From an uncultured Anaerolineales bacterium (GTDB lineage Bacteria; Planctomycetota; Phycisphaerae; FEN-1346): a stretch of DNA of 50,431 nucleotides. Positions within the stretch are counted from its first letter, which is position 1; the number at the start of each line of letters is the position of its first letter. Under the pieces are notes generated by a model. That model was not told the DNA's origin. It worked only from the letters and a program-made list of their open reading frames with translations, and made no database searches. The position numbers were made by a program, and so were the translations under genes. Shown piece by piece: positions 1 to 45,984 of the stretch. The DNA lies in NCBI GenBank assembly GCA_964437855.1, contig CAYTJE010000003.1, forward strand, positions 1 to 50,431, written 5' to 3'.

Positions 1-20
1 CGTACGTACGGTGGTGTGGG

Positions 21-50
21 AGGCGGGGGCGAGCAATCGCCCCTGCCTAC
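21..50 (-). repeat. GTAG-type REP hairpin
   Basis: aggcgggggcga-gcaa-tcgcccctgcct stem-loop followed by ac, which reads GTAG-gcaggggcgattgctcgccc on the minus strand. Confidence 0.6.
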
Positions 51-98
51 CCGATACAGAACTTACCTGAACACGCATTGCCTCGGCGGGAGAACTCC

Positions 99-746
99 AT
101 GACCCACGACGACGTCCTGGAGCGGATGTGTGAGGTTGGCCTGGTGCCGGTGGTCCGTGCCCCCTCGCCGGACGGGCTGCTGGAGATCGCCCGGGCCCTG
201 GCGGCCGGCGGCGTGCCCATTTGCGAGGTCACGATGACCGTCCCCGGGGCGATCGACGGCATCCGCCGGCTCGCCGGCGAGGTGGGCGGCGAGGTGCTCG
301 TCGGCGTCGGCAGCGTCACCGAGCCGGGCCAGGCCGACGAGGCCATCGACGCCGGCGCCCGGTTCGTCGTGGGCCCCGTCCTCGTGCCGGAGGTTATCGA
401 GGTCGCCCGCGAGCGCGATACGGTGGTGGTGCCCGGGGCGTACACGCCGACGGAGGTCTTCCAGGCCCACGCGATGGGGGCGGACATCGTCAAGGTCTTC
501 CCGGCCAGCGTGGGGGGGCCGGCGTACATCAAGGCGCTGCTCGCGCCGATGCCGTTCTTGAAGTTGCTGCCCACCGGCGGCGTGAACCTGGAGACGACGG
601 CCGACTTCCTGCGGGCCGGGGCCGCCACGCTCGGCGCCGGGTCGGCCCTGGTGAAGAAGGACGCCGTGGCCGCCGGCGACTGGGCCGCCATCACCGATCT
701 GGCCCGCCGCTTCCGCGACGAGGTGGAAAAGGCGCGACGTGCGTGA
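99..746 (+). CDS. eda: KDPG/KHG aldolase (Eda family)
   Basis: Motifs VPVVR, EVT, PGAYTPTE, VKVFPA and PTGGV; ATG at 99 follows a GGAG ribosome-binding site. Confidence 0.93.
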   Translation: MTHDDVLERMCEVGLVPVVRAPSPDGLLEIARALAAGGVPICEVTMTVPGAIDGIRRLAGEVGGEVLVGVGSVTEPGQADEAIDAGARFVVGPVLVPEVIEVARERDTVVVPGAYTPTEVFQAHAMGADIVKVFPASVGGPAYIKALLAPMPFLKLLPTGGVNLETTADFLRAGAATLGAGSALVKKDAVAAGDWAAITDLARRFRDEVEKARRA

Positions 747-1347
747 GCGAGACGAACAAACTCCCGCGCGGCGGCCTTCCCAGGCCACCGCGCCGGAACG
801 ATTACCGAGCCGTCGCGGCGGCCTGGTCCATACGGAGGCGTATGCCGAAGGCCGCCGCGCTACAACTTGCGCCGTTCTGGCGATCGGCGCCCTGGCCCTG
901 ATGCTCGCCCTCGGCTGCCATCTCCCGAGTCCCCGGCCGCGAAAGCCGACCCTGTACGAGGTCCGCGGGCGGGTTATCGACGCCGACACCCAACAGGGCG
1001 TAGCGGCGGCGCGGGTCCGCGTCCGGGCGACGCTTCCGTTCGGCAGCGGGGCGCAGTACCTCACGGCCTACGCCGTCACGGAGATGGACGGCACGTACCG
1101 GGTGGAACTGTCGGAGGGGTTCGCCGTAATGCAGCAGGCGGCGGCGATCCGCATCGACGCGTCGAAGGAGGGGTACATTCCCGGCGGGGCCGACCTGCCG
1201 CCGCCGGCCAAGCCGCGCGATTACTACGAGGCGCCGGCCATCGTCGTCAAGCGGGGGCGTGTGCCCCAACCCCCGCCGGACCTCAAGGGTCTGGGCATCC
1301 CGCTGACCGAACCGCCCCCGCCAAATCCCGTGCCGTGGAAGCGGTAA
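739..1347 (+). CDS. Putative lipoprotein with carboxypeptidase-regulatory-like beta domain
   Basis: Hydrophobic stretch ending LALGC, then VRGRVIDADT...GV..ARV...TEMDGTY...SKEGY. The GTG start overlaps the eda end. The N-terminus is encoded by two REP hairpins, so the start is uncertain. Confidence 0.7.
   Translation: MRERDEQTPARRPSQATAPERLPSRRGGLVHTEAYAEGRRATTCAVLAIGALALMLALGCHLPSPRPRKPTLYEVRGRVIDADTQQGVAAARVRVRATLPFGSGAQYLTAYAVTEMDGTYRVELSEGFAVMQQAAAIRIDASKEGYIPGGADLPPPAKPRDYYEAPAIVVKRGRVPQPPPDLKGLGIPLTEPPPPNPVPWKR
765..859. repeat. Inverted REP doublet (short and long form of the GGCC-TGGGAA-GGCC family)
   Basis: 765-793 gcgcggcggccttcccaggccaccgcgc and 814-859 cgcggcggcctggtccatacggaggcgtatgccgaaggccgccgcg; homologues at 3370, 25663, 25706, 27376, 30681 and 30746. 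Confidence 0.85.
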
Positions 1348-1350
1348 CGT

Positions 1351-1385
1351 ATTTCGGATTTCGGATTGGGGAATTCGGATTGCGA
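1351..1385. repeat. Degenerate 7-bp tandem repeat (ATTTCGG)n
   Basis: atttcgg atttcgg attgggg aattcgg attgcga; a shorter copy lies at about 4316-4330. Confidence 0.7.
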
Positions 1386-1466
1386 TGGCGAGGAGCGCCC
1401 GGCTACGCGGACGGGCCTGTATTCGCCGACGCGCGTGCGCGTCGTGCGCTCGGTGCATGGGGCCCG

Positions 1467-1493
1467 CGGCGGGCCGGGAGCCCCGCCGCGCGG
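1467..1493 (-). repeat. REP hairpin identical to the repeat inserted twice in miaB
   Basis: Its reverse complement ccgcgcggcggggctcccggcccgccg matches 23903-23929 and 23948-23974 exactly; it lies between convergent genes. Confidence 0.85.
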
Positions 1494-1510
1494 GAAGTAG
1501 CGTTGTAGTG

Positions 1511-3112
1511 CTAACCCTTCTGCCGGGCCCGGTATGCCTCCGCCGTCATGGCGAACTTCTGCTCCACCGCCTGCCGATACGCCGGCCCCGCGTTGTACGT
1601 GCAGAAGGGGTAGAGGCGGCCGTCGGGGTCGGCGTAGTGGATGACGCATCGGCGGACGCGGTTGATCTCGTAGTTGTAGCGGTCCATGAAGTGCATGCCG
1701 GCCACCAGGAGGCTTCGGAAGGTCTTCTTGCCTTCCGTGCCTCGGCCGACGTTCTTATCAATCATGCCGTTCAGGGCGTGGAGCCAGTCCTGGAAGGTCA
1801 TGCCCGCCGGTGCCGCCTCCGGCCGCCAGTGCCGCTTCAGCGCCAGGAACGCCCGCGTCTTGCGGAAGAAGCGGAATCGGCTCCGGCCGCTGCGGCCGGC
1901 CAGGTGCCACATGTCGTCCAGGAGCCCCTTGAGGTTGAAGAACTGCGGCACGGGCACCGCCCGGCCGTCGGTCCCGACGAACAGGTACGTGCCCAGGGCA
2001 CAGTGCGGATGGCACGACATCACGATATTCGCCTCGCCGCGGACCGCCTCCACCAGCCGCGTGAACGGCTGGACGCACGAGAGCGGGTACCAGTCCTCCA
2101 CCGGGTCGGTGATGCCCGTCTGCTCCGAGACGTCGCGGGCCATGTCGGTCAGCGTGTACCGTTGGGCCAGGCGCTCCTCGGTACGGATGCGGCCGGTAAA
2201 GGCGACGGGCTGGAACGAGATGCCGGAGATCGTCTCGATGCGGTCCAGGGCGAACTGCACGATTTGGCCGACCTGGTGGTCGTTGAAGCCGCGCACGAGC
2301 GTCGGGACGAGGACGATTTTCATGTCGGTCTGCATGATGGCCTCGACGGCCCGCCGCTTCTCGTCCATGAGCGGCCGGCCGCGCGTTTTCGTGTAGATGT
2401 CATCGGCCAGGCCGTCGAACTGGAGGTAGACGTCGTGCAGGCCGGCGTCCTCGCACCGCCGGGCGAAGTCCGCCTCGCGGGCGAAGCGCAGGCCGTTCGT
2501 GGCGATCTGGAGGTGCGAGAAGCCCATCTCCGTGGCCGCGCGCAGCACGTCCAGGAACCGCGGGTAGAGGGTCGGCTCGCCGCCGGAGAACTGGATGGCC
2601 CGCCCGGCCGCCGGGCGCGTCTCGCGGTAGGTCCGCAGCATGCCGAGGACCTGCTCGAACGTCGGCTCGACCACGTAGCCGGCGGCGTCGGAGTTGGCGA
2701 AGCAGATGGGGCACCGCAGGTTGCACCGGTTCGTGAGGTCGATGTTCCCGAGGGCGGTGTTCGAGGCGTGGTCCGGGCACAGGCCGCACTGGTGCGGGCA
2801 GGTGTCGGAGGCCGGCGTCTGCGGGTTCGAGAGGCCGTCGCCGTCGGCATAATGAAACGCTTCGGCCTTCAGGTACAGGCGGGCGTCGGACCAGTAGAGG
2901 TCTTCGACGGGCCCGTGGTCGGGGCAGGTCTTGGCCATCCATACCTGGCCGTCGCGCTCGATGAGGCGGGCGGGGATGCGGCGAAGGCACTCCGGGCAGA
3001 CGGACGGGACGGTCTTCGGCAGGCCGCGCGGCAGGGGCGGGATCGGCCGGCCCGAGAGGGTATGTTTGACGGCGGCGTCGGTCAGGTCGGCGGTCGGCGG
3101 TGGGTTCATCAA
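1511..3112 (-). CDS. tes: Radical SAM enzyme, tetraether lipid synthase (Tes/GDGT-MAS, MJ0619) homologue
   Basis: N-terminal CPEC...CPDHG, CPHQCGLCPDH, radical SAM motif CNLRCPIC, QFSGGEPT, YLQFDG, FQPVAFTGR, CHPHC, and C-terminal GMHFMD.YNY...RCVIHY..PDG...PFC.YN. Confidence 0.85.
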   Translation of the reverse strand: MMNPPPTADLTDAAVKHTLSGRPIPPLPRGLPKTVPSVCPECLRRIPARLIERDGQVWMAKTCPDHGPVEDLYWSDARLYLKAEAFHYADGDGLSNPQTPASDTCPHQCGLCPDHASNTALGNIDLTNRCNLRCPICFANSDAAGYVVEPTFEQVLGMLRTYRETRPAAGRAIQFSGGEPTLYPRFLDVLRAATEMGFSHLQIATNGLRFAREADFARRCEDAGLHDVYLQFDGLADDIYTKTRGRPLMDEKRRAVEAIMQTDMKIVLVPTLVRGFNDHQVGQIVQFALDRIETISGISFQPVAFTGRIRTEERLAQRYTLTDMARDVSEQTGITDPVEDWYPLSCVQPFTRLVEAVRGEANIVMSCHPHCALGTYLFVGTDGRAVPVPQFFNLKGLLDDMWHLAGRSGRSRFRFFRKTRAFLALKRHWRPEAAPAGMTFQDWLHALNGMIDKNVGRGTEGKKTFRSLLVAGMHFMDRYNYEINRVRRCVIHYADPDGRLYPFCTYNAGPAYRQAVEQKFAMTAEAYRARQKG

Positions 3113-3178
3113 GTCCCTTGTGCTGGCGTTGCGGAGTCCGGCGGCGCTCCGCCCCCGCGCCGCCCGAACCGACGGTGG

Positions 3179-3208
3179 ATTATAGGGGGGTATTCAGCCA
3201 AACTGCAA
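3179..3208 (-). promoter_or_regulatory. Sigma70-type promoter for the tes homologue
   Basis: TTGCAG-N18-TATAAT on the minus strand, about 65 nt upstream of the start codon. Confidence 0.6.
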
Positions 3209-3248
3209 GCGGGGAATGCGATACCGGGCGACCCAAAGGTTCCAGGGG

Positions 3249-3358
3249 GGGTGTAACAACGATTTCCGGCGAGCTTCGAACATCCCCGTAGCGCCGGGGT
3301 TTATCCCCGGCGTATGCCCCACGGGCTCACGGCCGCCGGGCATGAAGCCGGGGGCTAC
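3249..3358. repeat. GTAG-type REPIN with conserved 39-bp 5' extension (copy 1)
   Basis: gggtgtaacaac...gtagcgccggggtttatccccggcg...cgccgggcatgaagccggggctac; colinear with 9483-9593. Confidence 0.85.
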
Positions 3359-3369
3359 GGCCCGTTCGG

Positions 3370-3417
3370 GCGTGGTGGCTTGGTCCATACGGAGGCGTAT
3401 GCCGAAGGCCACCACGC
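3370..3417 (+). repeat. Long-form REP hairpin
   Basis: gcgtggtggcttggtccatacggaggcgtatgccgaaggccaccacgc; same loop as 814-859 with compensatory stem changes. Confidence 0.85.
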
Positions 3418-3445
3418 GGGCGTTCGGTGCCGGGCCCTTTGAGCC

Positions 3446-4282
3446 TCACCGCAGCGCGCCGGCGGCTTTGACGGCCAGGTTGAACACGATGTGCGCCCCC
3501 GCCACGATCCCGAAGCCCCGCTGCACCAGCAGGTAGCCCAGGTACACCCCGGCCGCCGAGCGGAACAGAAACGAGTCCCACGCGAAGCGGGTCGGGTCGT
3601 CCAGCGTGTGGGCGCCGGCGAAGATGCCGGCGGCGATGAGGACCACGGCCACCGTGATGCCGGGCGATTCCCGCCCCAGGATCGTGCGGGCCAGCCACAG
3701 CGCGGCCCCGACCATGAGCAGGCGGAACAGGAGTTCCTCGTAGATGCCCGCGCCGATGCTGGCCATGGCCGGGGCGAGCCAGGCCGGGCCGGCCGCACCG
3801 CCGGCCGCGGCGTCCCGCAAGGACCCGTAGGGGCCGGCCATCGCCAGGGCGCCCCCGCCCCGGAAGGCGAGGGTCACGACGGCCTGGAGGACGAAGAGCG
3901 GCACCGTCAGGATGAGGGTTTCGACGGCCATCCGGCCCAAAAGGCGCACCGGCACCCGCCACGGGTCCCGCCGCACCAGGTGCCAGGCGAGCAGCACGCC
4001 CACGACCAGCCACGTCGGCGCGAGCACCCCGGTCAGCCCCAGCGGCGCCAGGGCCTGCCGCAGCAGGAGGTCGGCCCGGGCGGCCAGGTCGGGCCGGACC
4101 CAGATCAGCCCCAGGGCGTAGAAGACGAGCAGCGGCGAGAGAAAGAGGAGGCTCGGCAGGGGACGGCGGGCCGCCGGGTCGTGCAGGAGCCGGTCGGCAT
4201 CGCGCCTGGCCGTGCGCCGCGACGAACGGCGGGCCCGGGACGGCTTGCGGCGCGGTTTCCGGGGGCGTTTCCTGCCGGCCAT
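3446..4282 (-). CDS. CPBP (Abi/type II CAAX) family intramembrane glutamic protease
   Basis: Multiple transmembrane segments; GIYEELLFR, FAGAH and AHIVFN motifs. Confidence 0.85.
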   Translation of the reverse strand: MAGRKRPRKPRRKPSRARRSSRRTARRDADRLLHDPAARRPLPSLLFLSPLLVFYALGLIWVRPDLAARADLLLRQALAPLGLTGVLAPTWLVVGVLLAWHLVRRDPWRVPVRLLGRMAVETLILTVPLFVLQAVVTLAFRGGGALAMAGPYGSLRDAAAGGAAGPAWLAPAMASIGAGIYEELLFRLLMVGAALWLARTILGRESPGITVAVVLIAAGIFAGAHTLDDPTRFAWDSFLFRSAAGVYLGYLLVQRGFGIVAGAHIVFNLAVKAAGALR

Positions 4283-4395
4283 GGCCGGAATGTAGCAGGC
4301 GGACGCGGAAAAGCAATTTCGGATTTCAGATGGCACGGCCGGAGCGATCCGTTACGCTTGACCGAGACGCCGCCGAGATACCAATGCTGTTTCCT

Positions 4396-4417
4396 GCGCG
4401 GCCCGTACGGGCCGCGC
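4396..4417. repeat. Perfect 22-bp palindrome between divergent genes
   Basis: gcgcggcccgtacgggccgcgc; a related hairpin cccggcccatacgggccggg lies inside miaB at 24975-24994. Confidence 0.6.
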
Positions 4418-4477
4418 GGGAAGTAGGGCAGTTGTGCAGTCGGGCAGGGCTTATCCGCTCATCCGACGGGAGGTCGC

Positions 4478-5155
4478 ATGAGAACCGACGAGACACTCCG
4501 TGCCTTCTACGAGGCGATGGACTCGGCCCTCGGCCCCCAGGGCTGGTGGCCGGCCGAGACGCCCTTCGAGGTCCTCGTCGGCGCCGTCCTGACGCAGAAC
4601 ACGAACTGGACGAACGTGGAGCGGGCCATCGCGAACCTGAAGCGCGAGGGCCTGCTCGACCCTCGCGCCCTGGACGAGGCCGACGCCGAGCGCCTCGGCG
4701 CTGTTATCCGGCCTGCCGGCTATTATCGCGTCAAGGCCCGGCGGCTTAAGAACCTGATGCACCTCTTGGCCGAGCGGTTCGGCGGCCGTCTGGACGCCCT
4801 CTTCGCCCTCTCGACCGGCGCGCTGCGCGAGACGGTCCTCTCGGTCAGCGGCATCGGCCCGGAGACGGCCGACTCCATCCTCCTCTACGCCGCGGGCCGG
4901 CCCGTGTTCGTCGTGGACGCCTATACCGCCCGCATCCTGTACCGGCACGGTCTCATCGAGGGCGATGCCACGTACGACGACTTGCAGGCGCTCTTCCACG
5001 GCGCGCTGGTCGAGGACGCCGACCTCTTCGGCGAGTACCACGCCCTGCTGGTGGCGGTGGGGAAGCGGTGGTGCAGGAAACGCGCCCCGCGGTGCGACGG
5101 GTGTCCGCTGGAGCCGCTGTTGGAGGACGGCCAGCCGGTGACGGACGCCCTGTGA
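4478..5155 (+). CDS. Endonuclease III-related HhH-GPD DNA glycosylase
   Basis: WWPAETPFEVLVGAVLTQNTNW, GIGPETADSILLYA, FVVDAYT and a C-terminal Cys cluster C..RAPRCDGCPL. Confidence 0.9.
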   Translation: MRTDETLRAFYEAMDSALGPQGWWPAETPFEVLVGAVLTQNTNWTNVERAIANLKREGLLDPRALDEADAERLGAVIRPAGYYRVKARRLKNLMHLLAERFGGRLDALFALSTGALRETVLSVSGIGPETADSILLYAAGRPVFVVDAYTARILYRHGLIEGDATYDDLQALFHGALVEDADLFGEYHALLVAVGKRWCRKRAPRCDGCPLEPLLEDGQPVTDAL

Positions 5156-5164
5156 GGAATTCGC

Positions 5165-5237
5165 GGGTGCCACGGATTGCCCGCAATCCGTGATTCCGGG
5201 GCCGCGGCGCACGGTTTGACAAGCAAACCGTGGCCCC
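5165..5237. repeat. GTGCCAC/GTGGC-type inverted REP doublet (copy 1)
   Basis: gggtgccacggattgcccgcaatccgtg ... cacggtttgacaagcaaaccgtggcccc; homologous doublet at 29439-29511. Confidence 0.8.
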
Positions 5238-5270
5238 TTTCTTGTACCATTGATTTTGCCGGTCTCAATC

Positions 5271-5364
5271 GCCGCGAACGCCTGCCCGGCGTAGCCTTGT
5301 AGGGCGAAGCCGGGTCAGTGAGCGGCGCGGGGCGGCCTGGCTAGCCGCGAACGTTAGTGAGCGG
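5271..5364 (+). repeat. Two copies of the gccgcgaacgtYagtgagcgg repeat, the first interrupted by a 34-bp hairpin
   Basis: 5271-5280 plus 5315-5325 rejoin to match the intact copy at 5344-5364; the insert is cctgcccggcgtagccttgtagggcgaagccggg. Confidence 0.8.
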
Positions 5365-5415
5365 TGCCGTTTCGTCTTGGTTGTGCTTGTGGAGCGGTTC
5401 GCGTGCCCCGTTCGG

Positions 5416-6561
5416 TTACGCTCCCGGTTCGGTTCCGGTCGCGGTGGTGGCGGCGAGTCCGGCCAGTCGGGCGGCGGCGGCCAGTTCGAGGCGGCTCTTG
5501 GGGTCTTCCGCCAGGAGCAGACTGCCCGGGCCGCGCAGGGTCCGCCGGATGGCCAACTGGGTGTCGGCGTCGATCTCGTGCCAGGCCGTGGCGCTGGCCC
5601 GCCCCCGCCGTTTGCTGTGGTAGAGGGCCTGGTCGGCCAGGTAAACGAGCAGTTCCGGCGACATGATCTCCTGGTCCTGCGGGTACGTGGCCGTGCCGAT
5701 GCTCAGGTGGATGGGGACGCGGGTCTCCTGGGCCTTGAAGACGTGCTTCCGGCAGGTGGCGAGGATGCGCTCGGCCAGGGCGTGGACCTCTTTGTGCCCG
5801 GTCCGCGGACAGACCAGGGCGAACTCGTCGCCGGCGTAGCGGGCCACCAGGTCCGACTCGCGGGCGCACCGCTTCAGGATGACCGCTACCTCTTTCAGGA
5901 CGTAGTCGCCGAACGGGTGCCCGTGCTGGTCGTTGATGGTCTTGAAGTGGTCCAGGTCGACGATCGCCATCGAGACGTTGTGGCCGTAGCGCCGGCTGAT
6001 CTTGAACTCCGTCTTCAGCCACTCCATCAGGTACCGGTAGTTGTAGAGCGCGGTCAGGCCGTCGGTGATGCTGCGGACCTTCAGGGCCCGGTTGTCCTCG
6101 CGGAGTTGCTTCAGCAGGGCCGTCTCCCGGGCGATGGTCTTGTCGAGTTCGCCGCGGACGTGGGCGAGTTGGTCGTGGACGGCCTTCAGGCGGATGGCCG
6201 CGTGAAGCCGGTACTGGAGGGTTTCCGCGTCGGCGCCCGAGGGAATCACCTCCTCCACGCCCGCCTGGAGGATCTCCCGTCGCCGCTCCGCCGGCAGACC
6301 GGCCTCGACCATGCCGATGACCGGCAGGTAGCGGTCGGCCCGGAGGCTCTTCAGGACCCTGGCGGTATCGGTCAGGGTGAACTCGCCGGGACGGTCCACC
6401 ACGACGAGCAGGTCGAGGTGCTCGCGTTTGACGACGGCCATGGCGGACAGACAGTCCGGCGCCGTCTGGACGGCCGCCCCGCACGACTCCAGGCGCTCGA
6501 CCAGACCGTTGGCGGTTTCCTGGTCGCCGATCACGGCAAGGATTCTGGGTTGTTGCGGCAT
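5416..6561 (-). CDS. Response-regulator diguanylate cyclase (REC, coiled coil, GGDEF) with AGDEF variant
   Basis: TDGLTALYNYRY, DLDHFKTINDQHGH, RESD I-site, ARYAGDEF, SIG and ADQALY. Confidence 0.9.
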   Translation of the reverse strand: MPQQPRILAVIGDQETANGLVERLESCGAAVQTAPDCLSAMAVVKREHLDLLVVVDRPGEFTLTDTARVLKSLRADRYLPVIGMVEAGLPAERRREILQAGVEEVIPSGADAETLQYRLHAAIRLKAVHDQLAHVRGELDKTIARETALLKQLREDNRALKVRSITDGLTALYNYRYLMEWLKTEFKISRRYGHNVSMAIVDLDHFKTINDQHGHPFGDYVLKEVAVILKRCARESDLVARYAGDEFALVCPRTGHKEVHALAERILATCRKHVFKAQETRVPIHLSIGTATYPQDQEIMSPELLVYLADQALYHSKRRGRASATAWHEIDADTQLAIRRTLRGPGSLLLAEDPKSRLELAAAARLAGLAATTATGTEPGA

Positions 6562-6807
6562 AGGACCTCCGGGTCTCGTGGACGCTGGGCCGAGGCGGGT
6601 GCGCCCGGCCGCTTGCCTGTTCAGAGGATAACGGTACCGGGGCGACGGGCAACCGGGTGGCGGCGGCGGGGGCGGGCCGGGCCGCTAAGTGCTTGTTGAG
6701 CGGGGGCTTGGCCGATTCCCGGTTTGCCGGGGGGCGCGTGGGCGGCTGCGGCGCGCGGCCGAAAATCGGCCGGTTTTTTCAGAGGAAGTGAGCCTGTTGC
6801 ACGAACC

Positions 6808-6859
6808 GCGCGGCGGGTGCCCCTCGGCTACGCTCGGGACAGGCTCCGACCCGCCGCGC
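6808..6859. repeat. Composite REP hairpin, also present in frame in miaB
   Basis: Its reverse complement differs from 24900-24951 at 2 of 52 positions; preceded by the end-like motif gagcctgttgcacgaa at 6790-6805. Confidence 0.85.
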
Positions 6860-6901
6860 ACATCCTCAGAGGCCCGCCGCGAGCCCCATGCGGGAGGCGC
6901 G

Positions 6902-7498
6902 CTACCCGGTCTGGCCGCCGGCCGTCAGAAGTTTCGACCCCGTCCGGATGTAGCCGATCAGCGAGAGGATCGCCAGGGTCACCGTCAGCCCCCAGATGCC
7001 GTACAGGACGTACCACGCCGGCCGGCCGAGGAAGCCCAGCAGGTCCGGGGCGGCGCAGGTGGCGACCACGGTCGCGAACTGCATGATGGTCGCCCCCTTG
7101 CCGGACACGCTGGGCAGGCCCTGGAACGGTCCGCAGACGAAGTAGATGACCACGGCGCCCCCCAGCATGATCAGCGCACGCGAGACGAGCGTGACGCTGA
7201 CCCAGTACGGCAGGCCGAGGTCGGGTTCGGCCGAGAGGACGCCCGGGATCGACAACGTGACCATCGCGCTGATGCCGAAGGCGTAATCGGCCAGGGGGTC
7301 CAGGATCGAGCCGACGCGGGTGACCTGGCCGGTCCGCCGGGCCAGGATGCCGTCGGCCGCGTCGGCCAGGCCGATCGCGAGCGCCAACCCCAGCGCGCCG
7401 TACCGGTACCCCCAGTGCGAGCGGGCGTTCAAGAGCAGCAGGACGAACACCGGCACCATGAGCAGCCGCGTGATCGTGATGCGGTTCGGCCACGACAT
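6902..7498 (-). CDS. CDP-alcohol phosphatidyltransferase (PgsA-like)
   Basis: PNRITITR and the signature DAADGILARRTGQVTRVGSILDPLAD. Confidence 0.9.
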   Translation of the reverse strand: MSWPNRITITRLLMVPVFVLLLLNARSHWGYRYGALGLALAIGLADAADGILARRTGQVTRVGSILDPLADYAFGISAMVTLSIPGVLSAEPDLGLPYWVSVTLVSRALIMLGGAVVIYFVCGPFQGLPSVSGKGATIMQFATVVATCAAPDLLGFLGRPAWYVLYGIWGLTVTLAILSLIGYIRTGSKLLTAGGQTG

Positions 7499-7542
7499 GC
7501 AGGTCGGTGCCTCCGTGTCGGGACGCCCTTTGGCACGGGGCA

Positions 7543-7571
7543 AAGGTACGAAGCCTACCTGAGAGTGTCAA
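7543..7571 (-). promoter_or_regulatory. Sigma70-type promoter for the pgsA-like gene
   Basis: TTGACA-N17-TACCTT on the minus strand. Confidence 0.6.
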
Positions 7572-7674
7572 TCAAACAATAGCGCGACGAGGACACCGGG
7601 GTTTCGAGCCGGGCCTCGTCGCGGTGGGGTCTGACGCAGCGCGTTGCCCTTCAGGGGGCGAACGCGTGGTTTGG

Positions 7675-8031
7675 CTATGGGATGGGTGGCGGCATTGGCG
7701 GACAGACCGGCACACTGGGGATCGGGGTCGGCGGGATGACCGGCTCTATTGGAAAGGGGTCGGGAGGCAGATCGTAAACGCGCGGCGGCGGCGAGATGTT
7801 CGGCACGTACTCCATAGCCGCCTCGGCACGCTCAATCGTTTCGGCTAATTCCCGGTCGCGCTCAGCCCACAGGCTCGTGTGATAGTCGTACGGAACGTAG
7901 GTGTCCAGGGGGGTCGGATACGGGTTGCGATAGGGGCCTCCCCCGCACCCGGCCAGAAGAACCGTCCCTATGACAAGGGCGGTACATAGTGCGGCGCGTG
8001 CGGATACCTTCGGAAAGCGATCGGCTAACAT
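7675..8031 (-). CDS. Small Pro-rich lipoprotein of unknown function
   Basis: Strong AAGGAGG ribosome-binding site, VLLAGC lipobox, Pro-rich C-terminus; lies in a less GC-rich stretch. Confidence 0.65.
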   Translation of the reverse strand: MLADRFPKVSARAALCTALVIGTVLLAGCGGGPYRNPYPTPLDTYVPYDYHTSLWAERDRELAETIERAEAAMEYVPNISPPPRVYDLPPDPFPIEPVIPPTPIPSVPVCPPMPPPIP

Positions 8032-8051
8032 GGCACACCTCCTTTTTCCCC

Positions 8052-8260
8052 TGCGGATTCAACTCTGAAACGCAACACGGCCCCCAAGCCCCTGGAGCCC
8101 CGTCGCGTCGGCGTCGGCCTCACTCCCGGCCCGAAGGGCGCCGGGCCGACGCCGAGGCGGCGGGGCGAAAGGGGCCCCCTGGCAGCCTCGGAGCTGAGGC
8201 AGAGGCCCTCAAACGCTCGAAACGTCGTTTGGCAGGTTGCGTTTCAGAGTTGAATCCGCA
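8052..8260. mobile_element. IS30-like MITE (209 bp)
   Basis: Perfect 25-bp terminal inverted repeats tgcggattcaactctgaaacgcaac / gttgcgtttcagagttgaatccgca with TG...CA ends; ccc on both flanks; resembles IS30 ends; no transposase. Confidence 0.85.
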
Positions 8261-8492
8261 CCCTGTTATAGTGGTTGTATCGTACAGGGGCGTCCGGCAG
8301 AGGATCAGTTACGGCTGCCGATCCTTACCTTGTTCCCTTCTTGAATACGCAAACCCTGGTTCGGTCTTGCGCAGTGGTTGGGAAAGGACGCGCGCATTGC
8401 GCACCGCGGAGGGGGTAGGGGTTCAGCCTGTGCACCGGGCCGTCTCTTGCGGTCGGGTTTGGGAACCGACCGGCTCGACGCGGGCGATAGTA

Positions 8493-9371
8493 TCAGAACA
8501 CCACCCCGGCGTAGCCGACGGCGGCGTCGGTGTCGGCCCGACCCGTGCGTTCCATCATCACGTCGAACGAGGTGGTGTAGCGGAGGACGTGTCCCTTGGC
8601 GGCGCCGAGGGTACGGGCGGCGGCGAGGGTGGCGGCAATGGCCCCGGCGCCGCAGGCGTTCATGTGGCGCCTGGCCTCCGGCACGACCTGCTCGGCGTCG
8701 AGGCGGGTCATCAGGTCAAGCATGCGGCGGTCGTTGTCGTCGCGGACCCAGCGGATGGCCGCCTTGCCGAGGCCCTCCGGCGTGAAGCCGTACGGCGGGC
8801 CGTAGTGCGTCAGGTCCGATGAGCCGATGCAGACGGCGTCGGCCTGCCGGTCGCGGATGGCCTGGCCCGCCACCTTGCCGAGGGCTGCGGCCGTGTCGGT
8901 CGGCGGCACGATGATCGGCACGATCTGCGCGTCGGGGCACACGTGCTGGATGAGGGGCAGTTGGACCTCCAGGCTGTGCTCGGTCTCGTGGACGGCGGGG
9001 TCGCTGTCGAGGAGGTCGTCGGCGGCGGCGCGGGAGAGGAGTTCGCCGGCCAGGCGCTCGTCCACCTCCACCTCGCCCAGCGGCGTCCGCCAGACGCCCT
9101 CCGGGAACAGGGCGTTGCCCGGGACGGGCCGATGGGCCGCCCCGAACAGCACGAACGTGGCCGGCCGACGCCGACCCGCGATGGCGCTGAAGACCGCGAA
9201 GGCGGTCTCGCCCGAGAAGAGCCATCCCGCGTGCGGCACGATGCCGGCGACCGGGCGGTCCGGCACGTCCGGTACGGCCTCCGGGACCCGCATTGACCGG
9301 ATGGCGGCCAGGCAGCCGTCGCGGTCCGCGGGGTAGAAGCGGCCGGCGACAACGGATTCACGGACCATCAT
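8493..9371 (-). CDS. amrB: AmmeMemoRadiSam system protein B (MEMO1 family)
   Basis: VAGRFYP, IVPHAG, WRTPLG, EHSLEVQLP, SSDLTHYG, NACG and VGYAG. Confidence 0.92.
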   Translation of the reverse strand: MMVRESVVAGRFYPADRDGCLAAIRSMRVPEAVPDVPDRPVAGIVPHAGWLFSGETAFAVFSAIAGRRRPATFVLFGAAHRPVPGNALFPEGVWRTPLGEVEVDERLAGELLSRAAADDLLDSDPAVHETEHSLEVQLPLIQHVCPDAQIVPIIVPPTDTAAALGKVAGQAIRDRQADAVCIGSSDLTHYGPPYGFTPEGLGKAAIRWVRDDNDRRMLDLMTRLDAEQVVPEARRHMNACGAGAIAATLAAARTLGAAKGHVLRYTTSFDVMMERTGRADTDAAVGYAGVVF

Positions 9372-9428
9372 GACGTGTCCCCCCCCGGCCTGAGGCCTGT
9401 TGGTATGGGTTATGGGCGGTCCATCCGG

Positions 9429-9456
9429 ATGGTACCGCGCCCGGAGCGCTTTGCAA
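9429..9456 (-). promoter_or_regulatory. Possible sigma70 promoter for amrB
   Basis: TTGCAA-N16-TACCAT on the minus strand. Confidence 0.45.
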
Positions 9457-9482
9457 GGAAGAACGTCCGCCCGCGCCGGCCC

Positions 9483-9593
9483 GGGTGTGACAACGGTTCC
9501 CGGAGAGAGTTGAACCCGCTCGTAGCGCCGGGGTTTATCCCCGGCGTACGCCCCAGGGGGCTCGCGGCCGGCGGGCATCAAGTCCGGCGCTAC
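9483..9593. repeat. GTAG-type REPIN with 39-bp extension (copy 2)
   Basis: Colinear with 3249-3358; the terminal ctac overlaps the stop codon of the aspartase-family gene. Confidence 0.85.
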
Positions 9594-11002
9594 CGCGGCG
9601 TCGGATCGTGCGGTTCGGTGACCCGGCGGGGGTCGAGGGCGGCGTCCAGGTCCGCCTCGGTCATCAGGCCCTTCTCCAGGATGAGGTCGCGGACCGTCTT
9701 GCCGGTGGCGACGGCTTCCTTGGCCACCTCGGCCGCCTTCGCGTACCCGATGTGCTGATTCAAGAGGGTCGCGAGGCCGGCGGAGGCCTCGAAGCAGGCC
9801 TGGCACCGCGCCGCATCGGCCTCGATGCCGCGGAGGCACCGCTCGATGACTACCGGTAGAAAGTTCTTCAATATCTGGATGCTGGCCAGGAGGTTGTGGG
9901 CCATGACCGGCATGAAGACGTTCAGTTCCAGTTGGCCGGCCGCCACCGCCTGGGCGACCGCCGCGTCGTGGCCGACCACCTGCATCGCCACCATGTTCAG
10001 GCACTCCAGGATCGACGGGTTCACCTTGCCGGGCATGATGCTGGAGCCGGGCTGGACGGCGGGCAGGCGGATCTCCGCGAGGCCCGTCCTGGGCCCGCTC
10101 GACAGGAGCCGCAGGTCGTTGGCGATGCGCCCGAGTTCCAGCGCCAGGTTCCTGAGGGCGGCGCTGGCGCCGGCGGCCGGGGCCATCGACTGCATCGCGT
10201 GCCGCAGGTCCGAGGCCGGCCGCAGGTCCAGGCCGGCGATGTCCGCCAGGTGGGCCGCGGCCGTCGCGGCGTAATCCGGGTGCGTGTTCAGGCCCGTGCC
10301 GGTGGCCGACCCGCCGAGGGGCACCTCCCGGCACCCGTCCAGGGCGCGGCGGAGGTCCGCGGCCCCGCGCGCCACGGCGGCGGCGTAGGCCGCAAACTCC
10401 TGACCCAGCCGCACGGGGACGGCGTCCTGGAGATGCGTCCGGCCGCTTTTGACGATGCCGTCGAAGGCCCGGCCCTTCTCGGCGAGGGCGTCGGCCAGGG
10501 CGTCGAGGACGGCCGCCAAGAGCGTCCCCTCCAGCCGCACCGCCACGTACATGGCCGTCGGGAACGTGTCGTTCGTCGACTGGCTCATGTTGACGTGGTC
10601 GTTGGGATGGACACGGGCGTAGGAGCCGAGCGGGTGGCCGAGAATCTCGTTGGCCCGGTTGGCGATCACCTCATTGGTGTTCATATTGAAACTGGTGCCG
10701 GCGCCCGCCTGAAACGGGTCGACGACCCACTGGTCCATGAGGCGTCCTTCGTCGAGGACCTCCCGGCAGGCCTGCTCGATGGGGTCGCAGGTGTCCGGGG
10801 CCAACTTGCCGAGATCGCGGTTGGTGCGAGCGGCGGCGAGTTTGACCATGACGCAAGCGCGCACCAGGGCCGGGTGCGCCCGCAGGCCGGAGACGGGGAA
10901 GTTCTCCACGGCCCGCTGCGTCTGGGCGCCCCGGTAGGCGCCGGCGGGCACGCGGACCTCGCCGAGGGTGTCGGTTTCCACCCGGTACGCATCGTCTGGC
11001 AT
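9590..11002 (-). CDS. aspA: Aspartate ammonia-lyase / class II fumarase family lyase, aspartase-like
   Basis: QAGAGTSFNMNTNEVIANRA, SQSTNDTFPT, GRTHLQDA, QPGSSIMPGKVNP and GQLELNV; aspA versus fumC cannot be fully resolved by eye. Confidence 0.8.
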   Translation of the reverse strand: MPDDAYRVETDTLGEVRVPAGAYRGAQTQRAVENFPVSGLRAHPALVRACVMVKLAAARTNRDLGKLAPDTCDPIEQACREVLDEGRLMDQWVVDPFQAGAGTSFNMNTNEVIANRANEILGHPLGSYARVHPNDHVNMSQSTNDTFPTAMYVAVRLEGTLLAAVLDALADALAEKGRAFDGIVKSGRTHLQDAVPVRLGQEFAAYAAAVARGAADLRRALDGCREVPLGGSATGTGLNTHPDYAATAAAHLADIAGLDLRPASDLRHAMQSMAPAAGASAALRNLALELGRIANDLRLLSSGPRTGLAEIRLPAVQPGSSIMPGKVNPSILECLNMVAMQVVGHDAAVAQAVAAGQLELNVFMPVMAHNLLASIQILKNFLPVVIERCLRGIEADAARCQACFEASAGLATLLNQHIGYAKAAEVAKEAVATGKTVRDLILEKGLMTEADLDAALDPRRVTEPHDPTPR

Positions 11003-11028
11003 GGCGTTCGTCCTTCGCGGTTCGGTTC

Positions 11029-11196
11029 TTAACGCAGAGATCGCAGAGCACGCAGAGAACAACAGAGAACGGCCGGGGACTGACTTCGCCGGAGGCGCAG
11101 GCGGTGGTCGCTTTGTGTGAGCCAGCGCCTCCTGTGTACTAAAGTATCATCTCTTTTCTCTACTTTTCTCTGCGCTCTCTGCGCTCTCCGCGGTGA
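11029..11196. repeat. MITE-like element with 31-bp imperfect inverted arms built from 9-bp cgcagagNN units
   Basis: ttaacgcagagatcgcagagcacgcagagaa (11029-11059) versus ttctctgcgctctctgcgctctccgcggtga (11166-11196); AT-richer interior. Confidence 0.75.
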
Positions 11197-11203
11197 CATC
11201 CAT

Positions 11204-11878
11204 TCAGTCGAAACCCCCACCCGGTTTCTGGCCGTAGCGCGAGTGGTACACGTCGTAGAGGCGCTGGGCCTCGTCGGGCGGTATGGGGATGGGGTCGCCC
11301 TTGACCATGGCCAGGTGGACGGTGCGGGCGATGTCCTCGACGACGACCGCGGCCTTCAGGGCGCCGCGGGCGCTCGTGCCGACGGCAAACACGCCGTGGT
11401 TCTGCATCAGGACCGCGGGGCACTGGAGGTCGATGTCGCGGAGGATGCGGACGACCTCCCGCCCGATCTCCGTGCCGCCGATCTTGGCGTACCCGCCGCA
11501 CGGGATCGGCATGCCGAAGGCGTCGCCGTGCTCCGTCAGGACCACCGGGATGCTTTGGCCGAGGGCGGCGAAACTGGACGCATGCGCCGAGTGCGTGTGG
11601 ATGACCGCGTGAACCTCAGCCAGGGCCTCCAGGATCGCCAGGGCGGTGGCGGTATCGACGCTCGGCTTCAGGTCGCCCTCGACGACCGTGCCGTCGAGCC
11701 GGACCACCGGCATCATGCCGGGCTCCATGTCGTCGAAGAGGACGCCGGACGGCTTGACGACCACGAGGCCGCTCTCGGGGTCCCGCTGGCAGACGTTGCC
11801 GCTGGTCCAGGAAACGAGGCCGAGCCTGGGCAGTTGCCGGTTGGCCCAGCAGACGCGTTCCTTGAGGGCTTCGAGCAC
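11204..11878 (-). CDS. araD: L-ribulose-5-phosphate 4-epimerase (class II aldolase family)
   Basis: WTSGNV, VVKPSGV, KPSVDT, HTHS and QNHGVF; GTG start after AAGGA. Confidence 0.88.
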   Translation of the reverse strand: MLEALKERVCWANRQLPRLGLVSWTSGNVCQRDPESGLVVVKPSGVLFDDMEPGMMPVVRLDGTVVEGDLKPSVDTATALAILEALAEVHAVIHTHSAHASSFAALGQSIPVVLTEHGDAFGMPIPCGGYAKIGGTEIGREVVRILRDIDLQCPAVLMQNHGVFAVGTSARGALKAAVVVEDIARTVHLAMVKGDPIPIPPDEAQRLYDVYHSRYGQKPGGGFD

Positions 11879-11925
11879 GGCGGGTTCCTTGTCTGGCGGT
11901 GCGAGCGATGGTCGCCGACGGTCCG

Positions 11926-11954
11926 AGTGTACCATGCCGACGGGGGGATGGGAA
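11926..11954 (-). promoter_or_regulatory. Possible internal extended -10 promoter for araD
   Basis: TTCCCA-N17-TACACT with TG two positions upstream of the -10 box. Confidence 0.4.
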
Positions 11955-11974
11955 GCATTTGGGGCAAGACGCAT

Positions 11975-12143
11975 CGGCGGCGGACAAGACTGCCCACCGC
12001 GCGAGTTCCCGTGTTATGCGCGGCGGGCAGTCTTGCCCGCCGCGATTCTCCTGTCGGCGCGGTGCCCAAGACTGGGCACCGCGCACACGCTTGCCCGCCG
12101 CGATTCTCCTGTCGGCGCGGTGCCCAGGACTGGGCACCGCGCA
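11975..12143. repeat. Cluster of REP hairpins containing a 54-bp direct duplication
   Basis: 12032-12085 and 12090-12143 are identical except at one base; hairpins gcgcggcgggcagtcttgcccgccgcg and gcgcggtgcccaRgactgggcaccgcgc. Confidence 0.85.
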
Positions 12144-12152
12144 TAAGCGTGG

Positions 12153-12842
12153 CTACACTCCGTCCCCGCCCTTCCTCGCCACAAGGCCGCACTCGGGCAG
12201 CCAGGTGACGCGGAGCCGGCCGGGAAGAAAGGCGTTCAGGTAGGTCCAGCGGTCGGCGACCTCGAAGCCGTGGCGGGCGAGTTCGGCCTGCCACTCCGTC
12301 ACGTGTCGCATGCCGATATGTTGTTCCAGGCGGTCGGCGCGGCGATAGACCCATCGGCGGAGGCGGCCGAGGTTCGGCGTGGCCATGCAGAAGCGTCCGG
12401 CGGGGGCGAGGACGCGGCGGACCTCGGCCAGGACGTCGCCCTGTCGCTCCCGGGCGATGTGTTCCAGGACGTCGGTGCAGAGGACGGCGTCGAACCGGCC
12501 GTCCTCGTACGGCAAGAGGGCGGTGCCGTCGGCCATCACGAACTCGGCCCGCGGGAACCGGCGGCTGGCCTGGCCGATGGCCCACTCCGAGACGTCGCAC
12601 CCGCACAGCCGGCGCCCGTCGTCGAACCGCGACAGCAGGAATCCGTACGCGCAGCCGAGGTCGAGCACAGCCCCGGGGCCCGCGTGCGGCAAGAACCAGG
12701 CCGCCAGCCGGTTGAAGTAGGATCCGATGTCGCGGTATCCGCCCCACTGGTAGAAGTAGGAGGTCCGGCCTTCGAAGTAATGCCGGTCGAACTGCATCGA
12801 TTGCCCGCGAGTGACGCCGGCTGGACAGGTTTCTGTGGTCAT
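12153..12842 (-). CDS. Class I SAM-dependent methyltransferase
   Basis: VLDLGCAYG, LPYEDGRFDAV, DVLEH, RVLAPAG and TPN. Confidence 0.88.
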   Translation of the reverse strand: MTTETCPAGVTRGQSMQFDRHYFEGRTSYFYQWGGYRDIGSYFNRLAAWFLPHAGPGAVLDLGCAYGFLLSRFDDGRRLCGCDVSEWAIGQASRRFPRAEFVMADGTALLPYEDGRFDAVLCTDVLEHIARERQGDVLAEVRRVLAPAGRFCMATPNLGRLRRWVYRRADRLEQHIGMRHVTEWQAELARHGFEVADRWTYLNAFLPGRLRVTWLPECGLVARKGGDGV

Positions 12843-12852
12843 CCGCGGGCTC

Positions 12853-14526: not shown

Positions 14527-14804
14527 GGTTGGCTCCTTCCGGGCTGACTGTCGCTGACGGAGGGTGATACCCGCGGCCTCACGGTCGCGGCTCGGGTACG
14601 GTCGCGGCACGGTGCGGCCGCCGGTCGGCGGCGAGCGATTCATTTGTGCCGCGCGGAGCGGTCCGCTGCAAGAAAAAGTCGTGTCGGAGGCGGACCTGGC
14701 GCGGACCGGCCTGTAAGGGGGGCGGCCTCCGGCTGGCCGAAGACGGCGAGCGTCCCGGGTCGCCGCCCGGGACGCTCGGGCGGGCCTGGTGTGGCGGACG
14801 GGGG

Positions 14805-15590
14805 TCAGCCCTGTGGGGCGGCGGTCTCGCTTTCCTCGGTCTCCGGCGCGGGCTCGGCGCCGGTCTCGGGCGGTTTGGGTTCGGAGGGCTGGTCGGTCGT
14901 CTCGTCTTCGGAGGTCTCCTCCCCTTCGCCCTCCGCGGCCTTCATGATGCCGACGGGTCCGAGGGCCTTGGGCCGGAGCCAGCGGATCTTGTCGACGAGG
15001 TAATAGTCGTCGATGCGCCTGAGGTCGGCGGTGAAGACCCAGGGGCCTTGGCGAAGTTGCAGTTTGGGATGGTGGATGTCGGTGTCGACGGCCTTCCAGA
15101 AGAGGCTGGCGTTGCCGATCAGGAGTTGGTAGAGGGCGAAGGACTCCCGTGGCAGCCGGCGGGCGATCCAGGGGCTGAGGGTCCGCTGGGCCACGCCCAC
15201 GGGGTTCCAGCGCCACTGCTTGGCGATGAGGCGGCCGGGTTCCTCCTCGTCGGTGGGCTGGGCCCGTTCGGTGGAGGCGATCTCGACGTAGAGGGCTTCG
15301 TCGAAGGGCTGGGCCGTGTCCAGACCCTCGAGGATTTCCCGGACGCGAGCGTCCAGGAGGTCCGGGTGGTCGCCGAAGACGTCCTTCCAGATGCGCGTGG
15401 CCTCGGAGGTGATCTGGGCGGGCGTCATGGGCTTGCCCGACTCGACCATCTTCTCGTGGAACCGGGCGGAGTACTCCTTGTAAAGTTCCTCGAACTGCTC
15501 CTTGGTCGAGGATTCGGCCGGCTGGGTCTTGCATCCGACAAGGCCCGCGGCCAGCAAAGCCACCAGCAGAGAGAGGAAGACGGTTCGCAT
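14805..15590 (-). CDS. Hypothetical lipoprotein with acidic C-terminal tail
   Basis: GLVGC lipobox, AGGAG ribosome-binding site, typical codon usage. Confidence 0.8.
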
Positions 15591-15629
15591 GGCGGTCTCC
15601 TATTCGTTTGAACCCTTTGGCCGACGGCC

Positions 15630-30680: not shown

Positions 30681-30773
30681 CGCGGCGGCCTTTGGCCTAC
30701 GCCTCCGTATGGACCGGGCCGCCGCGACGCGCGGCATTCGTTGGAGCGTGGCGGCCTGGGAAGGCCGCCACGC
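30681..30773. repeat. Inverted REP doublet (long and short form)
   Basis: 30681-30726 is the reverse long form; 30746-30773 is gcgtggcggcctgggaaggccgccacgc. Confidence 0.85.
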
Positions 30774-45920: not shown

Positions 45921-45969
45921 CCGCGCGGCGGGTCTTCCGGCTTCGCCGAGGCGACCCCCCGACCCGCCG
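45921..45969. repeat. REP hairpin with internal insert
   Basis: cggcgggtc...gacccgccg stem enclosing tccggcttcgccgaggcgacc. Confidence 0.65.
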
Positions 45970-45984
45970 GGCCGCGGAAAAAAG

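Follow-up and report, generated by a model that had tools for sequence, protein, structure and literature searches.

Exact-ended hairpin cassettes in the loops of REP palindromes of a Planctomycetota draft genome

Repetitive extragenic palindromes (REPs) in the genome of an uncultured bacterium (assembly GCA_964437855.1, deposited as Anaerolineales and placed by GTDB in the Planctomycetota, class Phycisphaerae) carry small self-complementary cassettes in their apical loops. We analyzed this nesting in a window of 50,431 nt, the whole stretch of contig CAYTJE010000003.1 (contig C3 of the genome referred to here as G000), and across G000, a 3.68-Mb draft in 443 contigs with 70% G+C that is 83.6% complete. 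A preliminary description of the window had singled out positions 5271-5364, where one palindrome is intact and a second copy carries 34 extra bases. The nesting is real and clean. A 20-nt cassette (C20) occupies one position, in one orientation, in the loop of a REP family that we refer to as REP1; the other cassettes are C24 (24/25 nt), C34 (a 34-nt module), and C22 (a third cassette type). The short REP forms are older and wider in distribution, and the long forms are derived insertions. We consider it probable that the long forms reflect derived, recurrent, site-specific insertion into the loop, followed by amplification of composites as units.

The C20 cassette and its host repeat

REP1 is recognized by its arms, CGCGGYGG and CCRCCGCG. 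A strict-arm regular-expression scan of G000 returned 1006 matches; a separate count of strict-arm short copies gave 615. The inter-arm length is 10 nt in 582 matches, 30 nt in 97, and 34 nt in 23, and many of the remaining matches are chance arm pairs. The 30-nt class equals the 10-nt class plus TCCATACGGAGGCGTATGCC, i.e., C20, and 12 of the 23 matches in the 34-nt class contain CCTGTCCCGAGCGNAGCCGAGGGGC (C24). A catalogue that tolerates one mismatch per arm, with the loop NNNNG|GANNN for short copies, holds 700 short (empty) and 126 C20-filled copies in 142 stem-loop types, and fold prediction indicates that short loops and long self-complementary loops occur together in this stem family. 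By a crude gene caller, which was used for all comparisons with genes, 114 of the 700 short and 9 of the 126 filled copies lie within called open reading frames (ORFs). Both REP1 and a second family, REP2 (described below), are ordinary high-copy palindromes of the REP/REPIN type: among 190 adjacent REP1 pairs, 136 are inverted (-+) doublets (REP doublets forming hairpins, or REPINs), with a modal gap of 24 nt. The REP1 core foot is flanked by G...C, and a GTAG sits about 15-20 nt off in the REPIN tail; neither GTAG nor CGTC was found directly at the foot of the hairpin. A subtype with CAAGAC/CAGGAC loops contributes 152 copies in G000.

C20 is found in G000 in 123 copies at up to one mismatch, 137 at up to two, and 145 at up to three. 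The reversed sequence gives no match at the threshold that yields 123, so chance is excluded. The register is nearly invariant, as 132 of 137 copies between REP1 arms begin exactly 5 nt past the left arm. The cassette splits the 6-nt REP1 loop as G|cassette|GA, with G always on the left and GA always on the right; these are the only invariant host bases next to the cassette, the left flank having just one. Seen against the asymmetric loop, the cassette is oriented in one way only, and the stem of the host stays unaltered. C20 begins with T and ends with C, which fixes both ends of the insert and leaves no target duplication. CAAGAC-type flanks were not seen at any of the 137 copies, as judged by inspection, although 152 such loops exist. 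Doubly nested or tandem C20 was not found in G000, where 1 + 6 regular-expression matches of these kinds were chance matches in unrelated sequence.

The cassette is strongly conserved: 71 of the 126 copies are identical, and position 17 is the one often-variable position (25 of 126), its changes being unmatched in the opposite arm of the 6-bp stem. C20 folds as a single 6-bp hairpin with 2-nt overhangs, and cassette-bearing folds are predicted to be stable both as RNA and as DNA. Conservation and stability would fit a long loop that is kept by selection as a functional module, acting on RNA or bound by protein (e.g., a terminator or stabilizer variant). We regard this explanation as very improbable, since filled copies show no preference in orientation relative to genes (19 same vs. 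22 opposite in tandem contexts; 47 vs. 46 by local gene majority), a search of Rfam gave no match at the gathering threshold (four weak chance matches in 600-7000), and selection would not explain why an identical 20-mer is found in 79 host haplotypes.

The direction of the change is given by comparison with three genomes of the same genus (G001, G002, and G003), 27 further relatives, and, at the family level, 18 other genomes of the same family. Short REP1 is present in 17 of the 18 family genomes, and empty REP2 in 13 of the 18. The three members of the same genus hold 170, 620, and 875 copies of short REP1. C20, at up to one mismatch, is found 123 times in G000, 10 times in G001, twice in G002, and not at all in G003 or the 27 further relatives. 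C24 has 14, 1, 17, and 36 copies in the genus genomes and none in the 27 others. A looser family scan detected 21-nt variants of C20 (TCCAGTACGG... and TCCGATACGG...) in CCTGG|GAAGG REP1 loops of a second genus, g12. When exact C20 was sought in a set with a single genome for each prokaryote species, which may omit the window's own or near genomes, 10 stretches were found, nine in one Planctomycetota metagenome-assembled genome (MAG) record and the tenth an unrelated match in an Actinomycetales MAG. Since the short forms are widespread and C20 is limited to two genera, the long forms are derived. The opposite scenario raised in the preliminary description, in which short forms are deletions of an ancestral long form, is rejected by this distribution. 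Slippage between ACG...ACG and GAG...GAG was also considered and rejected, as it needs two steps and most stems lack those repeats; slippage intermediates are rare among the 1006 REP1 matches (18 nt, n = 5; 22 nt, n = 1).

Repeated gain and amplification of composites

The 126 filled REP1 copies represent 79 different 26-nt host haplotypes, and random draws of 126 from the 700 empty copies yield 74 on average. Thirty-two of the 79 filled haplotypes (75 of the 126 copies) are letter-identical to empty haplotypes; random empty subsamples share 43%. The nearest neighbor of a filled haplotype is empty in 46 of 79 cases, filled in 3, and tied in 30. By these measures, the filled hosts resemble REP1 copies picked at random from the empty ones. 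The filled share by stem type is 18/161 for GTGCG|GAGAC, 10/142 for GTACG|GAGAC, 16/55 for CCTGG|GAAGG, and 10/30 for GCCGG|GAGGC.

These figures bear on an alternative in which C20 has no mobility of its own. The long-loop REP1 would have arisen once and spread as a whole REP or REPIN, reaching its many stems through gene conversion (with a 20-nt loop-out heteroduplex) and fast compensatory change. A richness of filled haplotypes equal to that of a random empty sample, together with 32 filled haplotypes identical to empty ones, speaks against such a history, and conversion tracts would have to stop exactly at the cassette ends each time. The REP1 inverted doublets (n = 136) are likewise unfavorable to it, with 101 empty in both halves, 34 half-filled, and only one fully filled. 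REPINs that have both the spacer AGGGCCAGGATAGGCGTTTCC and the tail GGAATCCCTTTGTAGC are found empty/empty (contig C26), right-filled (contigs C2 and C17), left-filled (contig C24), and, on contig C63, with C20 in the left half and a different cassette in the right half.

Mixed families were also found by an all-against-all comparison of 60-nt flanks, in which 7 of 50 flank families hold both filled and empty copies, 39 are all empty, and 4 are all filled. One mixed family consists of 33 empty copies and one filled copy, and another joins the empty copy at 25706 in the window to a filled paralog. A further one, of the rare CTCAG|GAGAG type, comprises four empty copies and the sole filled copy of the type, with like flanks on both sides, so that whole-unit spread has no filled donor of that stem type to draw on. 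Mixed REPINs and doublets, taken with the spread over haplotypes, lead us to repeated gain plus composite amplification. The gain of cassettes in many host haplotypes and REPIN lineages is supported by all three lines (haplotypes, mixed families, and doublets). Amplification of composites as units, which the preliminary description had proposed, is borne out by three observations: four C20 copies of the TCCAGACGG variant have flanks in common; all 10 C20 copies of G001 lie in CCTGG|GAAGG stems, mostly in the same doublet; and a single REPIN family, in which the GTCGG|GAGAC half is filled, recurs on 8 contigs from metagenomes.

In the sequence of events that we propose, REP hairpins came first, and the 20-, 24/25-, ~21-, and 34-nt pieces would be mini-palindromes, able to fold on their own, that were added to the apical loop later. 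C20 would have entered many REP copies separately, and some composite REPs or REPINs would later have been copied as whole units. Insertion may act on a REP hairpin extruded as single-stranded DNA (ssDNA), perhaps through an enzyme supplied in trans, for which an HUH-Y1 protein of the lineage (RAYT-like or IS200-like; RAYT, REP-associated tyrosine transposase) or a small GIY-YIG nuclease could be a candidate. We advance a hairpin-specific ssDNA enzyme step only tentatively.

A number of observations weigh against recurrent, enzyme-driven insertion. When both flanks are required to pass the alignment thresholds, none of 11 flank families is mixed (10 all empty, one all filled). C20 is essentially never found outside REP1 in G000. 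The restriction of the G001 copies to one stem type is what unit amplification predicts, and the g12 copies share this stem type, often in the same doublet. No orthologous site filled in one genome and empty in another was found when the cassette loci of G001 and G002 and four metagenome loci were compared with G000. Intergenic sequences could not be aligned in these comparisons, and REPs were present or missing as wholes. Coding DNA of G000 is 73-89% identical to that of the same-genus genomes, with differing intergenic gene content and REPs, and the cassette-bearing metagenome contigs (70-87% identical to G000) behave in the same way between genes. The strand of C20 is biased relative to GC skew (35:19 at |skew| >0.02, p = 0.04; 51:47 unthresholded), though this bias is weak, threshold-dependent, and the same as that of empty REP1 copies. 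As for the enzyme, tblastn found no REP1-type RAYT in the G000 assembly, which is 83.6% complete; the match obtained, 28% identical, is a RAYT flanked by a different REP. Characterized RAYTs, as described in PMC8266576, cut CT or CA 5' and 3' of the hairpin and not the loop, and the small size of C20, which has no room for two transposon ends, speaks against a classical RAYT reaction. The published search pattern for SRM, the repeats of the Ssn nucleases discussed below, gave 35 matches in G000 against 17 in a reversed control, judged to be no enrichment, and none of them overlaps C20, C24, or C34.

Several of these points favor whole-unit spread, namely the lack of free C20, the single stem type in G001 and g12, and the presence or absence of whole filled REPs in orthologous comparisons. 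It would also account for the composite copies with common flanks and for stems with 1/3 inner pairs in both classes (18/126 filled, 75/700 empty), and coexisting loop variants within one REP family are known, at least as loop types (PMC3733652). Weighed against the haplotype and doublet data, we judge it unlikely, though not strongly so. One orthologous site (G002 L027 = G000 contig C31:889) is filled with the same variant in both genomes; hence a cassette can persist since their split. Three public Logan runs were compared over window positions 1-20000, where contigs break at repeats, and among the 12 of 25 indels listed none is at a cassette.

A different route to repeated gain would be templated insertion without a dedicated enzyme. 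A replication fork would stall at the tip of an extruded REP hairpin. Guided by microhomology in the loop (G on its left side and GAG/GAA on its right), the nascent strand would switch to a filled REP elsewhere, copy the cassette, and switch back. That G and GA are the sole invariant host bases beside the cassette fits this well, and nothing further would be needed to account for the single orientation, the missing target duplication, the confinement to G|GA loops, the empty state of CAAGAC loops, and the fact that C20 is not found free. An ectopic switch would, however, have to rely on a very short microhomology of 1+2 to 1+3 nt, junctions that are partial or shifted are uncommon (132 of 137 are in exact register), and the same or similar modules in unrelated palindromes, and in ORFs of the genomes G014 and G033, are left unexplained. 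We therefore hold templated insertion to be improbable, more so than whole-unit spread. Gene conversion between REPs and template switching at hairpin tips are nonetheless live rivals to recurrent, site-specific insertion.

Other modules, window sites, and candidate enzymes

REP2 has the structure (GCTAG)CCGCGANCG-NNA-GNGAGCGG, with a GNNA loop, a tandem G.A step, and a 2-bp stem that covaries as AC/GT, GC/GC, and CC/GG. About 90 of 111 regular-expression matches in G000 are true copies, and 7 carry a 33/34-nt module. In the filled REP2 of the window, the 34 extra bases fall between CG and TCAG; a paralog (contig C211:6050) has the same 45-nt left flank but is empty. C34 is predicted to fold as CCCGGC-GTA-GCC-loop-GGC-GAA-GCCGGG. 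Besides REP2 loops, its hosts in G000 are the loops of a perfect palindrome, REP2p, with the arms CCGCGACC/GGTCGCGG (contigs C136 and C63) and a palindrome with the arms CCCGCTGC/GCAGCGGG (contig C294). In other genomes, C34 copies in non-REP2 contexts number five in G007, four in G018, and one in G003, and two of those in G007 (L070 and L072) are embedded in tandem CCTGAGT heptamers. The small dispersed repeats (SDRs) of cyanobacteria are often located in heptamer repeats as well.

Two further modules behave similarly. In G014 and G033, a 16-mer of C20, TCCATACGGAGGCGTA, is found within a ~50-nt palindrome CCCATACGGG|...|CCCGTATGG (arms CCATACGGG/CCCGTATGG) that falls in ORFs; the 16-mer is also found at intergenic GCCTG|... 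sites, with seven places in G014 and three in G033. The hairpin CCCGCC-GGAG-GCGGG occurs in REP1 (7 copies), in REP4 (one copy), and in a GTCATTC...GAATC host (one copy). C34, the 16-mer, and this hairpin are each present in several kinds of host palindrome, and a module behaves as an independent unit common to different hosts. Unlike C34, C20 in G000 has essentially one host, REP1. C24 is not a clean insertion, since by our reading of the sequences about three bases of the REP1 loop are replaced relative to the usual short form. All four bases occur at N in its center, GCGNAGC. A freely variable base in a GCGNAGC triloop fits a DNA mini-hairpin and is a further point against a functional module kept by selection.

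The sites in the window are listed in Table 1. The four filled/empty pairs that the preliminary description had named were all confirmed in the window sequence, and each of the four cassettes contains the core it had recognized in the inserts, GCG(W)A(T)GCC. The GGCCTGG|GAAGGCC hairpin that is empty at 25706 and 30747 is the host of C20 in the three plus-strand copies.

Table 1. Filled and empty REP sites in the window
Feature	Position	Strand	Remark
REP2 hairpin (CCGCGAACG...TCAGTGAGCGG) with 34-nt module	5272..5325	+	1 of 7 filled REP2 copies
C34 nested module, CCTG + CCCGGC-GTA-GCC..GGC-GAA-GCCGGG	5281..5314	+	Predicted fold; same module in other hosts
REP2, empty, CCGCGAACGTTAGTGAGCGG	5345..5364	+	GNNA loop, tandem G.A, covarying 2-bp stem
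REP1, CCTGG|GAAGG type, with C20 at 827-846	814..859	+	REPIN right half; left half at 767-792 is empty
REP1 with C20 at 3384-3403	3371..3416	+	
REP1 with C20 at 27391-27410	27378..27423	+	
REP1 with C20 variant (GTAGGCC) at 30694-30713	30681..30726	-	Flanks CCCGG|AAAGG
REP1, empty, CCTGG|GAAGG type	25706..25731	+	Filled paralog with like flanks at contig C261:949
REP1, empty, CCTGG|GAAGG type	30747..30772	+	
REP1, empty, GTCGG|GAGAC type (GGGTCGG|GAGACCC)	27321..27346	+	
REP1, empty, GTGCG|GAGAC type	50379..50404	-	
REP1 with 25-nt cassette C24 at 6819-6843	6809..6858	-	
REP1 with C24 at 24916-24940	24901..24950	+	
REP1 with third cassette, C22 type, GTCGCCTCGGCGAAGCCGG	45924..45971	-	

The window also holds other repeats. 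A repeat of ~115 nt at 5157-5271, with the hairpins CACGGATTG..CAATCCGTG and CCACGGTTTG-ACAAG-CAAACCGTGG, abuts the REP2 at 5272; it has many copies in G001-G003 at 79-88% identity, and in G000 it often follows REP4 copies. At 3290-3345 and 9516-9567 is the repeat GTAGCGCCGGGGTTTATCCCCGGCGTAYGCC, a GTAG-tagged hairpin whose 3' end has GGCGTATGCC in common with C20; 5 of 17 stand-alone GGCGTATGCC sites are of this type. Elsewhere in G000, three contig ends (C15:1959-2057, C188, and C232) carry a near-identical C24-bearing REP followed, after the same spacer, by a C20-bearing REP. They could be copies of a dispersed composite or else contigs of a single locus from variant strains.

Two of the relatives have a RAYT gene with REP1 at its flanks (G001 contig C156 and G003 contig C84), and a third (G003 contig C104) is flanked by the CAAGAC-loop subtype. 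The RAYT of G000 (NCBIfam REP_Tyr_transpos, 100 bits; cut-off 80) lies between copies of a fourth repeat, GTGTGGCCCGGCCGGTCTTGCCCGGCCGGGAG, with 124 strand-hits at about 60 loci. In the window, four REP1 copies with CAAGAC/CAGGAC loops stand in a row at 11976-12141. The G003 contig C104 is syntenic, and its RAYT gene lies inside a CAAGAC/CAGGAC-type cluster about 4 kb beyond the last aligned gene; the window cluster has no RAYT and may be a lost or unassembled RAYT locus. G000 also encodes a 161-residue Y1 protein with HVH and Y----Q motifs (contig C175; L003 1306-1791), the gene of which is bracketed by a ~120-nt repeat containing CCGCGACC-loop-GGTCGCGG, a perfect palindrome of the REP2 type. 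This looks like the rare "class 3" HuH-Y1 arrangement of PMC6006769. An IS200-like gene in G000 is flanked by GTAG-tagged hairpins (REP3), and a truncated paralog is also present.

Small GIY-YIG reading frames number three in G000. The first (contig C85:11431-12045; L110 1318-1932) is a mini GIY-YIG gene downstream of tRNA-Ala(cgc), which is followed by two hairpins and this gene. It is preceded by CCTGC-GTA-GCCC-GAGCGCAGCGA-GGGC-GAA-GCAGG, a frame as in C34, and about 130 nt past its GIY-YIG domain is a C24-like sequence, matching at ~24 of 29 positions by our own count. The C-terminus is out of frame relative to intact 81-residue orthologs (G014 contig C103 and G002 contig C151), which have a like hairpin upstream and no C24-like piece downstream. 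A search of NCBIfam with the mini GIY-YIG protein gave no match. The second frame is followed by a GTCATTCTGAGCG...GAATCTCGCC hairpin. The family of this hairpin, GTCATTCYGAGSG...GAATCTCGCC, has 89 seed matches in G000, including the window member GTCATTCYGAGSG...CGARGAATCTCGCC at 23382-23430, and its center is modular, with short forms, AGCGAAGCGAGT, and CCGTACGGCC, and single copies that contain a whole REP1, a REP2-type palindrome, or CCCGCCGGAGGCGGG. On contig C191 (L109 1332-1430), ~100 N lie just upstream of a small GIY-YIG gene, so that its 5' flank is unreadable.

No nuclease gene was found beside C20, and the GIY-YIG genes of G014, G033, and G001-G003 are on other contigs than the C20-like cores. 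An intergenic C20-like copy in G014 adjoins a gene for a PEP-CTERM protein, with no tRNA or nuclease nearby. Taken together, REP1 flanks RAYTs in G001 and G003, C34- and C24-like hairpins lie at the GIY-YIG gene on contig C85, and no enzyme was tied to C20.

A bolder version of recurrent insertion, which we find unlikely, is that C20 is truly mobile and ranks with the smallest mobile units known, written by an ssDNA enzyme of the lineage into any G|GA tip of REP1, and that C20, C24, C34, and CCCGCC-GGAG-GCGGG circulate among all palindromic repeat families. REP loops would then offer landing pads to hairpin parasites of a second generation. The preliminary description had likewise proposed a second tier of mobile hairpins aimed at REP loops. 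The exact site and orientation, the recurrent gain, and the several hosts agree with this proposal, in which mobility itself is a putative component. For the question of how REPs and very small repeats diversify and move, G000 provides an unusually clean case, with one exact 20-mer, one phosphodiester target, one orientation, and more than 120 copies in 79 haplotypes alongside ~700 empty targets in the same genome. With these properties, site-specific single-strand insertion is open to direct tests on oligonucleotides with the few Y1 and GIY-YIG enzymes that the lineage has. An enzyme that inserts C20 would provide a compact means of writing short DNA into the loops of hairpins; should there be no such enzyme, the case would document templated insertion between dispersed hairpins.

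Relation to known systems

The closest parallel in form is the coexistence of short and long loops within one REP family, described by Di Nocera et al. 2013 (PMC3733652), where the inner part of the long loops is self-complementary over up to 6-7 bp (up to 27 bp in Bradyrhizobium) and the proportions of short and long loops vary between species. The same work describes REPs inside small GC-rich palindromes, with abundant unoccupied palindrome copies, in Thermomicrobium roseum. To call the hierarchy undescribed, as was first suggested, is thus too strong. In that account, as far as its treatment of loop types extends, the variants come with no claim on insertion, polarity, or recurrence, whereas REP1 carries an exact-ended, derived 20-mer in 79 haplotypes. 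REP1 also differs from the superfamilies of that study in not being GTAG/CGTC-tagged, a tag that REP3 at the IS200-like gene does carry.

REP1 resembles the REPIN/RAYT system (Bertels and Rainey 2011, PMC3116915) in its inverted doublets with spacer and tail and, as far as G001 and G003 are concerned, in the RAYTs flanked by their own REPs. The REPINs described there move as whole doublets; no mention of a shorter module entering a REP loop was found there, and the word "nested" is absent from the text. Insertion sequence (IS) copies at one fixed REP position, with REPs as specific targets, were described by Tobes and Pareja 2006 (PMC1525189); those inserts, as presented, are full-size and transposase-coding, and the inserts here are 20-34 nt and non-coding.

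Compared with the ssDNA elements of the IS200/IS605 family, C20 is likewise orientation-specific, lies beside a short conserved target, and makes no target duplication, but lacks the subterminal hairpins at both ends, with cleavage sites set by guide tetranucleotides, that mark those elements. Their strand bias linked to replication direction has as its counterpart in C20 only the weak, threshold-dependent GC-skew figures given above. The SDRs of the Nostocaceae, the subject of Elhai et al. 2008, are reportedly 21-27 nt long, share a common fold, and are mobile by comparison of orthologous sites. Compared on size and nesting alone, they are alike in being very small, proposed to be mobile, and inserting into a palindrome, and differ in phylum and sequence and in having an 8-nt palindrome as host in place of a REP hairpin loop. 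The specific case is SDR5, which may insert into the HIP1 palindrome (PMC5861425).

The Ssn GIY-YIG nucleases with their NTS/SRM repeats (Chenal et al. 2025, PMC11893778) are similar in that small hairpins centered on GCG-xAx-GC bracket tiny GIY-YIG genes. The counterpart in G000 consists of the ~89 GTCATTCYGAGSG...GAATCTCGCC hairpins, the small GIY-YIG genes, and the C24/C34-like hairpins beside one of them; Ssn, in the experiments presented there, was shown to cut and not to insert, and C20 has no such gene beside it. Searches of open-access text found no description of a short cassette with exact ends for which derivation and recurrence in REP loops had been demonstrated. The nesting in G000 extends the known pattern of loop variants and nested palindromes with stronger evidence for repeated insertion.

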